A stretch of DNA of 64,000 nucleotides from the NCBI RefSeq assembly GCF_041886205.1, contig NZ_CP169029.1; one strand, 5' to 3'. Both the position numbers and the translations under genes were made by a program. Origin of the DNA: Escherichia coli. GTDB taxonomy: Bacteria > Pseudomonadota > Gammaproteobacteria > Enterobacterales > Enterobacteriaceae. The notes beneath the pieces are model-generated. The model ran no database searches. It was not told where the DNA came from and saw only the letters and a list, made by a program, of their open reading frames with translations. Below, piece by piece: positions 45,326 to 50,753 of the stretch. The number at the start of each line of letters is the position of its first letter. Position 1 is the first letter of the stretch.

Positions 45326-46648
45326 TTAGTTACATTTAGCTCTAAGTGTTTGTAGTTTCATCGCAATGAGTAAAAGGACAACAAGAATAAGTGATAACGT
45401 TAAGAGAAGAGCATAGAAACCATTCCAGTGGTATATTTCTATTATTTTAGACAATGGATAGCCAGCCGCGGATGCACCAAGATATGCGAATAAACTAACA
45501 AAACCAGTAGAAGCACCAGATGCATATTTATGTGAGTTTTCAGCAGCTGCCATTGCGATCAGAAATTGTGGACCAAAGATAAAGAAGCCAGTGATGAAAA
45601 ATAACAACGAAAAAACATATTTACTATCGATAGAAACCAACCATAGACATGCAGAAGCAATGATTATACCAATTGTATAAATAACATTCATTTGAGAGCG
45701 ATTGCCCTTAAACAGAATATCTGATCCCCATCCAGCTACGATAGCACCAAAAAAGCCTCCAACCTCAAACATCATTACTGTTGCATTTGCTGTTAGCAAG
45801 TCATATTTATGAGTCTCAATCAAATACAAATTTCCCCAGTCATTGATTCCTGTACGAATAACATAAATAACTGCATATGATATTGCCAATACCCAAATTA
45901 TATTATTTTTAAATATATAATCTTTTAAGATATTCCATTGTGACAACCCTATACCTTGTTCTTCATGATTAATCTCAGCTATATCATTACGCCACTCTCC
46001 AACTGTTGGTAATCCCATCGATCTTGGTCGATCACGCAATAAGAAACATAATAAAATGCCAATAATAACAGCAATGGCCCCCGGAATAATCATGCCATAA
46101 CGCCAACCTAGCCATAAGGCAACACTACCTGATAAAATAGGGATAATTGCTCCACCGATATTATGAGATGTATTCCATATGGACCACCAGAATCCACGTT
46201 CATTTCGGGAATACCAAGTATTTAAAATTTTTGAACACGGAGGCCATCCCCATCCCTGAAAAAAAGCATTAACCATCCATAAAAATATAAACAAAGGTAT
46301 AGATGATGTTAAACCAAACAATATATTGACACATCCAGTCATTATCAATCCAATCCCCATAAACCATCTTGGATTAGAACGATCACCTATAACTCCAGAA
46401 ATAAATTTTGATGCCCCATAAGTTAGATAAAATGCCGTTCCGACCATACCAATATCTGATTTTGTAATACCTAAATCAGATAGCATCTCAGGCATTACGA
46501 AGTTAAAGCTCTTTCGTGTGAAATAAAATACAGCATATCCTATATAGCTCACAATCATTAAATGAAGTCGCCAATATCTATATGTTTTATCAATATCAGT
46601 TTTACTCATTGTTATTTCTTTGTCAGGAGACTCTGAAAATATGGACAT
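45326..46648 (-). CDS. MFS organophosphate:phosphate antiporter (GlpT/UhpT/PgtP family)
   Basis: 440-aa 12-TM protein; aligns by eye with GlpT (YRYWRLHLM..., GDRSNPRWF, GWGWPPC, NTSHNIGG, FKGNRS); strongly AT-rich; flanked by IS elements. Confidence 0.85.
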   Translation of the reverse strand: MSIFSESPDKEITMSKTDIDKTYRYWRLHLMIVSYIGYAVFYFTRKSFNFVMPEMLSDLGITKSDIGMVGTAFYLTYGASKFISGVIGDRSNPRWFMGIGLIMTGCVNILFGLTSSIPLFIFLWMVNAFFQGWGWPPCSKILNTWYSRNERGFWWSIWNTSHNIGGAIIPILSGSVALWLGWRYGMIIPGAIAVIIGILLCFLLRDRPRSMGLPTVGEWRNDIAEINHEEQGIGLSQWNILKDYIFKNNIIWVLAISYAVIYVIRTGINDWGNLYLIETHKYDLLTANATVMMFEVGGFFGAIVAGWGSDILFKGNRSQMNVIYTIGIIIASACLWLVSIDSKYVFSLLFFITGFFIFGPQFLIAMAAAENSHKYASGASTGFVSLFAYLGASAAGYPLSKIIEIYHWNGFYALLLTLSLILVVLLLIAMKLQTLRAKCN

Positions 46649-46947
46649 ATATAACCTCTTTTATTATGAAATATTTTCAATAATAATCCGTTAGTAATCC
46701 TATCATAGGGTAATGCCTCATCATGTTAAAATGATCACATTTATAATCATGTCAAAAAGAACAACAGAAAAAATGATTTAAAATCAATTAAATATAATTT
46801 CAACATATTGTTGTTATTAAAACATTGGTGGTAAATGTAAAGCGAGAACAGTTTGTAACAGTGACTCCTTGCAGACTAAGTTAGAGTCTCCTGATCTTAC
46901 CCAGCAATAGTGGACACGCGGCTAAGTGAGTAAACTCTCAGTCAGAG

Positions 46948-47256
46948 GTGACTCACATGACAAAAACAGTATCAACCAGTAAAAAACCCCGTAAACAGCA
47001 TTCGCCTGAATTTCGCAGTGAAGCCCTGAAGCTTGCTGAACGCATCGGTGTTACTGCCGCAGCCCGTGAACTCAGCCTGTATGAATCACAGCTCTACAAC
47101 TGGCGCAGTAAACAGCAAAATCAGCAGACGTCTTCTGAACGTGAACTGGAGATGTCTACCGAGATTGCACGTCTCAAACGCCAGCTGGCAGAACGGGATG
47201 AAGAGCTGGCTATCCTCCAAAAGGCCGCGACATACTTCGCGAAGCGCCTGAAATGA
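46948..47256 (+). CDS. insE: IS3 OrfA (HTH transposase component)
   Basis: 102 aa [52 protein letters not shown]... Confidence 0.9.
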
Positions 47257-48119
47257 AGTATGTCTTTATTGAAAAACATCAGGCTGAGTTCAGCATCAAA
47301 GCAATGTGCCGCGTGCTCCGGGTGGCCCGCAGCGGCTGGTATACGTGGTGTCAGCGGCGGACAAGGATAAGCACGCGTCAGCAGTTCCGCCAACACTGCG
47401 ACAGCGTTGTCCTCGCGGCTTTTACCCGGTCAAAACAGCGTTACGGTGCCCCACGCCTGACGGATGAACTGCGTGCTCAGGGTTACCCCTTTAACGTAAA
47501 AACCGTGGCGGCAAGCCTGCGCCGTCAGGGACTGAGGGCAAAGGCCTCCCGGAAGTTCAGCCCGGTCAGCTACCGCGCACACGGCCTGCCTGTGTCAGAA
47601 AATCTGTTGGAGCAGGATTTTTACGCCAGTGGCCCGAACCAGAAGTGGGCAGGAGACATCACGTACTCACGTACAGATGAAGGCTGGCTGTATCTGGCAG
47701 TGGTCATTGACCTGTGGTCACGTGCCGTTATTGGCTGGTCAATGTCGCCACGCATGACGGCGCAACTGGCCTGCGATGCCCTGCAGATGGCGCTGTGGCG
47801 GCGTAAGAGGCCCCGGAACGTTATCGTTCACACGGACCGTGGAGGCCAGTACTGTTCAGCAGATTATCAGGCGCAACTGAAGCGGCATAATCTACGTGGA
47901 AGTATGAGCGCAAAAGGTTGCTGCTACGATAATGCCTGCGTGGAAAGCTTCTTTCATTCGCTGAAAGTGGAATGTATCCATGGAGAACACTTTATCAGCC
48001 GGGAAATAATGCGGGCAACGGTGTTTAATTATATCGAATGTGATTACAATCGGTGGCGGCGGCACAGTTGGTGTGGCGGCCTCAGTCCGGAACAATTTGA
48101 AAACAAGAACCTCGCTTAG
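47253..48119 (+). CDS. insF: IS3 OrfB (DDE transposase)
   Basis: 288 aa with DDE catalytic region (WAGDITY..., HTDRGGQY, ...SLKVECIH), ending [11 protein letters not shown]. Confidence 0.9.
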
Positions 48120-48248
48120 GCCTGTGTCCATATTACGTGGGTAGGATCAATAAGCATATCCAGAGGTGGTGTACAAGCCAGAGTAAAACGTGAGTTTTAT
48201 TTGGTAAAATCGTAAGCGCCCTTTGTAGAGCGTAGTGTAAGCAGGGGT

Positions 48249-49885: not shown

Positions 49886-49904
49886 CCTGCCCAGGTAAAG
49901 GGAT

Positions 49905-50252
49905 TCAGATCCGCAGACTATTACTTTTCGACCTTCCCGGTTGCATCCAGACTATACCCTCCAGCAGCATGGCAAGCTGTGCCGGGGTCAGATACACCTT
50001 TCCCTCCCGGGCGACCGGCCAGATGAACGTTCCCCGTTCAAGTCTTTTCATATAGATGCAGAGCCCTCCGCTGTCTGCCCACAGGAGTTTTACCAGCCTG
50101 CCCCTGCGTCCCCGGAAGATGAAGAGATGGCCGGAGATCGGGTCATCCTTCAGGGTGTTCTGGACCTTTGCGGCCAGACCGTTGAAGCCGTTTCTCATGT
50201 CGGTGATGCCGGCCACGAGCCAGATAAGGCAGCCAGCCGGAAGCGTAATCAT
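49905..50252 (-). CDS. IS66 Orf2 (TnpB-like)
   Basis: 115 aa MITLPAGCLIWLVAGITDMRNGFNGLAAKVQNTLKDDPISGHLFIFRGRRG... Confidence 0.85.
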   Translation of the reverse strand: MITLPAGCLIWLVAGITDMRNGFNGLAAKVQNTLKDDPISGHLFIFRGRRGRLVKLLWADSGGLCIYMKRLERGTFIWPVAREGKVYLTPAQLAMLLEGIVWMQPGRSKSNSLRI

Positions 50253-50659
50253 ACTGTGCTCCTGCCGGCGAGTTCGCGGACGATCCGGAGCTGTTTCTCC
50301 GGGTCAGGATTGTCGAGTGTGAGGGTGCCGTGGCGAAGCGTCAGCGAGCAGGTTGACCCCGTTCCCTGACCAGACAGAGCCGGAGACTGCCGGGTGGTGG
50401 AGTCAGGTACAATTTCGACCGGAAGTGCCGCAGGAGGGGATACAGATGGAACGGGAGCTGGCAGCCGGCGGAATACCCGGCCTTCTTTACGCCACAGACG
50501 GATCCATTTAAAAAGGACGTTATCGTTGACCCCGTGCGTACGGGCAATATCCGCAACATTGGCGTCCGGTCGGGTAGCCAGTTCGACCAGCCTGAGTTTG
50601 AATTCGCTGGAATAAACGCGGCGGGGTTCGGTCCGCCAGGCCCGGGTTTCAGATTCCAT
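50249..50659 (-). CDS. IS66 Orf1
   Basis: 136 aa with HTH (RVYSSEFKLRLVELATRPDANVADIARTHGVNDNVLFKWIRLW). Confidence 0.8.
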   Translation of the reverse strand: MESETRAWRTEPRRVYSSEFKLRLVELATRPDANVADIARTHGVNDNVLFKWIRLWRKEGRVFRRLPAPVPSVSPPAALPVEIVPDSTTRQSPALSGQGTGSTCSLTLRHGTLTLDNPDPEKQLRIVRELAGRSTV

Positions 50660-50753
50660 AACTTAGATGTCCGTCTGTTTCAGATGGGCGTCTAAGTTAG
50701 CGTTTTCACTCGACTGCCTGAAGACGTCTCTGACGGGTCGCTTACGTAAAATC

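Follow-up and report, generated by a model that had tools for sequence, protein, structure and literature searches.

An intact, stand-alone UhpC-type antiporter gene, probably for hexose phosphate, among insertion sequences of an Escherichia coli genomic island

We analysed a 64,000-nucleotide stretch of Escherichia coli DNA (contig NZ_CP169029.1), hereafter the window, in which a gene surrounded by insertion sequences (IS) lies at 45326..46648 on the minus strand and encodes a 440 amino acid protein of the UhpC clade of organophosphate:phosphate antiporters (OPA), within the major facilitator superfamily (MFS). The reading frame has no internal stop, and the first ATG is taken as the start codon because the N-terminus that it gives, MSIFSESPDK..., agrees with that of the family. 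The gene has a G+C content of 35.0%, and only 26.3% at third codon positions (GC3), against 49.7% for the whole window. It forms part of a module (44947-46891, 33.5% G+C) whose other components have been kept with it: a putative upstream control region (46649..46891, minus strand) and a non-coding 3′ part (44947..45325, 32% G+C). The latter accompanies the gene in other E. coli islands, with 94–95% identity to the corresponding DNA of strains KC-Dl-1 and CFS3292 and 84% to a remnant in the uropathogenic E. coli (UPEC) strain U013. A preliminary description of the locus had noted a 440 amino acid organophosphate:phosphate antiporter homologue in AT-rich DNA, and the reading frame, the family match and the composition of the module confirm this. 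We conclude that the gene, intact and probably functional, was acquired horizontally and is an additional gene for a sugar-phosphate transporter of the UhpC type.

The protein contains one Pfam MFS_1 domain (E = 1.3e-57, residues 35–395) and passes the OPA subfamily model TIGR00881, with 431 bits against a cutoff of 408. It also passes the NCBIfam model of the UhpC subfamily, NF008661, scoring 658.3 bits where the cutoff is 564 (E = 5.9e-198, positions 8–436 of 439). The equivalog models for the other transporters of the family all failed: GlpT gave 336 bits against a cutoff of 633 and 314 against 748, UhpT 234 against 497, and PgtP 213 against 750. Thus the label 'GlpT/UhpT family' in the preliminary description, whilst right about OPA homology, is too coarse. 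Among solved structures, the closest matches are GlpT 1PW4 (E = 2.4e-82, residues 2–430) and the human SLC37A4 glucose-6-phosphate exchangers (E ∼1e-66). Judged by its sequence, the protein is a predicted 12-helix MFS organophosphate:phosphate antiporter of the UhpC branch.

The residues expected of a working antiporter are present. R45, R265 and K81 align to their counterparts in UhpT and GlpT, namely the arginine pair (R45/R269 in GlpT, R46/R275 in UhpT) and the lysine of transmembrane helix 2. We take arginines of this type to be those that bind substrate and phosphate, the roles of the residues being those of the established GlpT and UhpT literature. H162, D270 and E295 are invariant in a 15-sequence alignment of the UhpC branch, and stand opposite H165, D274 and E299 of GlpT in the 1PW4 alignment. 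At the two positions setting the specificity of UhpT, where that protein has D388 and K391, the window protein has T381 and V384, and the same T/V combination is found in E. coli UhpC. The earlier view that the substrate cannot be inferred was too pessimistic, since clade and conserved residues favour a hexose phosphate as the probable substrate, with glucose-6-phosphate as the leading candidate.

Identity to the UhpC of E. coli itself is 53–55%, and identity to UhpT, GlpT and PgtP is 26–35%. The closest relative is a chromosomal 448 amino acid protein of Morganella (87–89% identical, in the same 90% cluster); others are a copy on a Citrobacter IncHI1B plasmid (88%), proteins of Providencia (78%) and of a Salmonella island (73%), and those of Pasteurellaceae such as Aggregatibacter and Actinobacillus (68–72%). 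The surroundings of UhpC-type genes were surveyed in 80 loci, from a scan of one genome per species, and in ten others, using E. coli UhpA, UhpB and UhpT as queries. Loci with a protein at least 66% identical to the window protein were counted as clade members (n = 32), and 30 of these had enough upstream flank to be informative. Neither uhpB nor uhpA occurred within 8 kb in any of the 30, and no UhpA or UhpB match was obtained in any of the 32, whereas in 52 of the 58 other UhpC-type loci uhpB immediately preceded the gene (median gap 55 bp). The 64-kb window likewise has no UhpA or UhpB homologue anywhere. A neighbour-joining tree took in 31 of the 32 clade loci, one being omitted because of faulty extraction; these and the window protein were monophyletic with 100/100 bootstrap support, and the Morganella protein was the sister of that of the window. 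The members are found in Morganella, Providencia and many Pasteurellaceae (the gene alone in the chromosome), and in Salmonella islands. As a candidate UhpC sensor of a uhpABC(T) system, then, the window gene has neither uhpAB linkage nor orthology to the sensor clade. Nearly all complete E. coli genomes (5415 of 5426) have a core uhpABCT, and therefore the island gene is an additional copy.

A separate case of a UhpC-type gene without uhpAB was seen at two loci of Providencia (Providencia vermicola), where a second such gene (within 5166–7308 of one locus), directly following a gene of the inositol-monophosphatase family, encodes a protein 58–60% identical to the window protein. This suggests, as do similar cases in Shewanella, Pragia and Serratia oryzae, that stand-alone genes arose within the UhpC branch on more than one occasion.

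The full gene is rare, being found in 12 of the 5426 complete E. coli genomes. The exact protein is encoded on 578 contigs of a larger collection. All 12 complete genomes have the full-length frame. Comparison of three E. coli island alleles gave a ratio of non-synonymous to synonymous substitution (dN/dS) of 0.08–0.10 at dS ∼0.09, which shows that purifying selection acts on the coding sequence and that it is not decaying. The possibility of a pseudogene, raised in the preliminary description, is ruled out by the full-length frame, the retained key residues and this low ratio.

Upstream of the gene, all on the minus strand, are a Shine–Dalgarno sequence, AAGAGG (46660..46655), at 7 nt from the ATG; a promoter-like pair of hexamers, TTAACA-16-TATGAT (46729..46702); and a site resembling those bound by the cAMP receptor protein (CRP), TGTGATCATTTTAACA (46739..46724), whose centre is 83 bp from the ATG and which shares bases with the −35 hexamer. 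Seven Pasteurellaceae orthologues also have a CRP-like site (at least 9 of 10 positions) 73–86 bp before the ATG, against a mean of 0.02 loci for shuffled upstream regions, the kinship among the seven inflating this count. From the conserved position of the site we infer that the gene may be under CRP (catabolite) control. On the other side of the gene, a hairpin followed by a T-run, resembling an intrinsic terminator, lies 18 bp past the stop codon (45274..45308, minus strand) and is the only terminator-like site in 44900-46950.

The very end of the coding sequence differs between alleles. In KC-Dl-1 (10395–10464 of its locus) the 3′ end of the gene, with its stop codon, contains about nine copies of a repeated 7-bp unit, TTAGCTC, of which the equivalent place in the window (∼45326-45345) has one. 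Because the C-terminal residues vary between alleles (...RAKCN, ...RAKS, ...RAKR), the repeat may change the protein tail by slippage.

The module is bracketed by insertion sequences, as the preliminary description had it, with IS66 end fragments on the left and IS3 plus an IS66-family element on the right. The left-hand fragments, two stacked IS66-family left ends on the minus strand (44698-44843 and 44844-44946), each end in ...GCGCTTAC, adjoin the module at 44946/44947, and match IS66 left ends in KC-Dl-1 and CFS3292 at 96%. On the right, IS3 extends from 46892 (TGATCTTACC...) to 48149 (...GGTAGGATCA) on the plus strand. It is recognised as such by its length of 1258 bp, its terminal inverted repeats and its intact orfA and orfB, and an identical copy is annotated as a transposase with programmed frameshift. 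Next comes the third IS66-family copy of the window (48212..50745, minus strand), with GTAAGCG-type ends and an 8-bp duplication, GTAAAATC, at 48204-48211 and 50746-50753. Its tnpA and tnpB are intact, and its tnpC is split into four open reading frames of 207, 84, 136 and 123 amino acids, identical copies being annotated as frameshifted; the element is therefore defective and not autonomous. This is a correction to the earlier account of the element, which was right about its position and duplication; the other coordinates given there, and the triplets flanking IS3, are also correct.

No 3-bp target duplication surrounds IS3, the flanks being TCC and ATA, and it had been proposed for this reason that the element may mark a rearrangement. 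Comparison with other strains bears this out. KC-Dl-1 and CFS3292 share a 2062-bp module which reaches 26 bp further to the left and 33 bp further to the right than the window copy, and both edges in the window are therefore truncations made by IS elements. The sequence that continues past the IS3 junction in these two strains is absent to the right of IS3 in the window. Strain CE0011b has the same IS3, third IS66 copy and right flank, with a truncated autotransporter gene to the left of IS3 and flanks of GAC and ATA. IS3 is thereby confirmed as a junction formed by recombination or deletion.

In U013, a 550-bp remnant of the module (8007–8556 of its locus) comprises the last 58 codons and the downstream region. 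The UPEC island that holds it also carries a microcin, and at a distance of 1.7 kb there is an intact phosphoglycerate transport system, pgtP-pgtCBA. The right end of an IS66 abuts the remnant at the same nucleotide (window 44947) as does an IS66 left end in the window. Such a shared edge suggests that one IS66 inserted long ago and that IS66–IS66 recombination came later, or else that the place is an insertion hot spot.

In E. coli the gene is always found in a single-gene module of ∼2 kb among IS elements, with neighbours that differ by island. In the window and in strains ZYB39, ZYB62, C10 and C11, it stands between contact-dependent-inhibition genes and an inositol cluster; in KC-Dl-1 the neighbours are PerC-family regulators and a pap fimbrial cluster, and in CFS3292 a nickel transporter and F17 fimbriae. 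Truncated remnants occur in other E. coli islands, including those of UPEC. The gene had been described as IS-delivered cargo. The part of this claim that stands is that it is a rare accessory module always among IS elements, but delivery by any particular IS is not supported. The arrangement resembles composite transposons and other IS-flanked modules in having a single cargo gene bounded by IS elements in several genomic and plasmid contexts. A composite transposon was nevertheless rejected: the flanking elements are not of one family and some of them are fragments, no duplication encloses the unit as a whole, IS3 lacks a duplication of its own, and elsewhere the module continues past both junctions. 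A self-mobile module was rejected as well, since the shared 2062 bp have no terminal inverted or direct repeats.

The clade as a whole has been mobilised independently at least three times, into E. coli islands, Salmonella islands and Citrobacter IncHI1B plasmids. The Citrobacter plasmids carry a Morganella-type allele (92% DNA identity to Morganella) between ISEc33 and IS26, and the Salmonella islands carry a third, low-GC allele. Morganella was considered as the direct donor of the E. coli gene and rejected, as the DNA is only 74% identical with synonymous sites saturated, and G+C is 35% (GC3 26%) against 45% (GC3 51%) in Morganella. When the 379-bp downstream and 243-bp upstream segments were compared by tblastx and blastn, neither matched the flanks of any orthologue.

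We consider it likely that the gene encodes a stand-alone antiporter exchanging hexose phosphate, probably glucose-6-phosphate, for phosphate, and not a sensor coupled to UhpB. This is the simplest reading because the full antiporter machinery has been kept and because orthologues stand alone in many genomes. The protein would bring in hexose phosphate from outside the cell, most probably glucose-6-phosphate, and release internal phosphate in return. In E. coli it would be expressed from its own, probably cAMP–CRP-dependent, promoter, and would act independently of the UhpABC induction circuit. The gene would have arrived by horizontal transfer from a low-GC donor as a single-gene module of ∼2.06 kb, after which repeated insertions of IS66, IS110 and IS3, together with IS-mediated recombination, would have trimmed both edges of the module and reshuffled its neighbours.

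A UhpC-type protein working in this way would have precedents. Glucose-6-phosphate transport by chlamydial UhpC is reportedly the finding of a study by Schwoppe from 2002. Two papers, both citing that study, describe this protein (also HPTcp) as a UhpC-type glucose-6-phosphate transporter which serves as the hexose-phosphate importer of an organism without UhpAB (PMC4281921, PMC8292140). It offers the best functional analogy to the window protein, a likeness of architecture and logic and not of tested orthology. In addition, E. coli UhpC, although a sensor, itself transports glucose-6-phosphate (PMC8154325).

Several points weigh against this interpretation. The E. coli sensor UhpC shares every conserved residue that we checked, so that sequence alone cannot separate a transporter from a sensor, and our case is built on gene neighbourhood and precedent. 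UhpB is almost certainly present in the host, which makes cross-talk possible. Full-text literature searches found no transport, expression or phenotype report on the clade or on this paralogue. As regards control, the promoter scan gave 12 sites in the region against 11.0 in shuffled sequence, which is no excess; the three CRP-like sites in the window, where 2.2 are expected, are not significant by themselves; and the orthologues of Morganella and Providencia have no CRP-like site upstream. Furthermore, DNA at 33–35% G+C is a typical H-NS target in E. coli, and the gene could be silent under laboratory conditions through H-NS, which is plausible under any reading.

The alternative closest to existing annotation is that of an accessory glucose-6-phosphate receptor, which would signal through the UhpB and UhpA of the host and alter when, or to what, uhpT is induced, without carrying substrate itself. 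The partner kinase is available in almost all E. coli, T381 and V384 are of the UhpC type, and 'glucose-6-phosphate receptor UhpC' is the name of both the NCBI model and the PGAP product. Indeed, the protein is already automatically annotated as 'receptor UhpC' in public genomes, and its family is likewise already annotated. Such a role seems quite unlikely to us, however, given the modest identity to E. coli UhpC and the separate clade with 100% bootstrap support, and a protein that only signals would have no output in those genomes where the clade gene stands alone. The contrast in uhpB linkage (0/30 informative clade loci, 52/58 other UhpC loci) makes it probable that the NCBI product name is wrong for this sub-clade of stand-alone transporters. 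A different doubt concerns the substrate. OPA members with the same arginine pair, such as GlpT, UhpT and PgtP, carry very different substrates, and those UhpC proteins that have been characterised share modest identity with this one; the gene might accordingly specify a working antiporter for another sugar phosphate, phosphoenolpyruvate, phosphoglycerates or a phosphonate, or one with fosfomycin as a side substrate. The gene remnant beside pgtPCBA in the UPEC island could be cited in the same sense, and is probably coincidental. As UhpC is by far the best family match, and UhpC-type residues are kept at the positions that determine UhpT specificity, we hold another principal substrate to be improbable, though the most credible of these alternatives.

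It is very unlikely, on the other hand, that the gene is a silent hitch-hiker, that is, an AT-rich fragment with no present function in E. coli which is decaying whilst the IS-rich island retains it. The truncated remnants in other islands would fit this idea, as would the surroundings, which are a graveyard of IS elements with several pseudogenes, and a G+C content low enough to invite silencing by H-NS. Yet the frame is complete in 12/12 complete carrier genomes, the dN/dS values speak for sustained purifying selection, the gene has retained its own regulatory signals, and members of the clade have been captured independently in Citrobacter plasmids and Salmonella islands.

Set beside the known systems, the proposed hexose-phosphate antiporter shares with E. 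coli UhpC the NCBIfam subfamily, the fold, the arginine pair, the T/V residues and, if the proposal is correct, glucose-6-phosphate transport (PMC8154325). It differs in its sequence and clade and in having no uhpB, uhpA or uhpT linked to it, as is true of every informative clade member, and its gene is on an island, whereas E. coli uhpC occupies the core ilvBN-uhp locus. With UhpT, GlpT and PgtP it has in common the MFS fold and the R45/R265-type arginines, and presumably the exchange mechanism, but its scores are far below each equivalog cutoff and it is without the D388/K391 pair of UhpT.

Repeated capture combined with purifying selection suggests that an extra means of taking up phosphorylated sugars is worthwhile in gut or other host-associated niches. 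Uptake of phosphorylated sugars has been linked to colonisation by other pathogens (PMC4546632). A hexose-phosphate route which bypasses UhpABC induction may be selected in certain host niches, as the cattle or farm origin of eight of the 12 complete carrier genomes might hint, perhaps with carriage of fosfomycin, or with rewiring of Uhp signalling by a second receptor, as variants; this more specific scenario is an unlikely one. OPA transporters are entry routes for fosfomycin, and an additional family member could matter for fosfomycin susceptibility, a modest clinical angle. If it is true that the protein carries the drug, strains could remain susceptible after loss of uhpT or glpT. By-products of the analysis are the probable correction of the automatic name of the clade and a clear account of how IS elements have rearranged the DNA on both sides of the gene.

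Further insertion sequences are stacked on either side of those described above. To the left lies a partial second IS66 copy (about 43775..44697, minus strand), consisting of a tnpB fragment, tnpA and the left end, with tnpB interrupted by ISEc11. This IS110-family element (about 39629-40064 and 42764-43774) is in turn split by the first IS66 copy, an intact ISCro1-like element (40065..42763, minus strand) with a clean 8-bp duplication, TTAGCTAC. ZYB62 has this first copy, whereas the locus of ZYB39, identical in other respects, is without it, so that it looks recently inserted. To the right, the third IS66 copy has inserted into an IS3-family transposase remnant (integrase core with an internal stop; 50746..51036, plus strand), of which another piece, 48150-48211, lies between IS3 and the IS66 element. 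The remnant is supported by an identical annotated sequence in ZYB39, which maps to 50815-51036, and is 79% identical to an IS3-family fragment in KC-Dl-1.

Beyond the IS cluster, identity with annotated strains places orphan contact-dependent-inhibition toxin and immunity pieces on the left (∼38540-39155; a TNT-domain fragment and an immunity-63 protein), and on the right (54054-64000) a cluster for myo-inositol catabolism that is complete (iolB, E, G, D) and is accompanied by an ABC transporter. A MarR-family regulator gene at 51289-51789 has an internal stop in the window, ZYB39 and ZYB62, and is intact in CE0011b, which is without the transporter module. The window has a single tRNA gene, for tRNA-Ser (GGA) at 11917-12004, and it may be there that the genomic island integrated. 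As to their sources, eight of the 12 complete carrier genomes came from cattle or a cattle farm, two from humans, and one each from a pig and a beluga whale, an apparent host bias that is unproven since several of these genomes are probably clonal or from one study.

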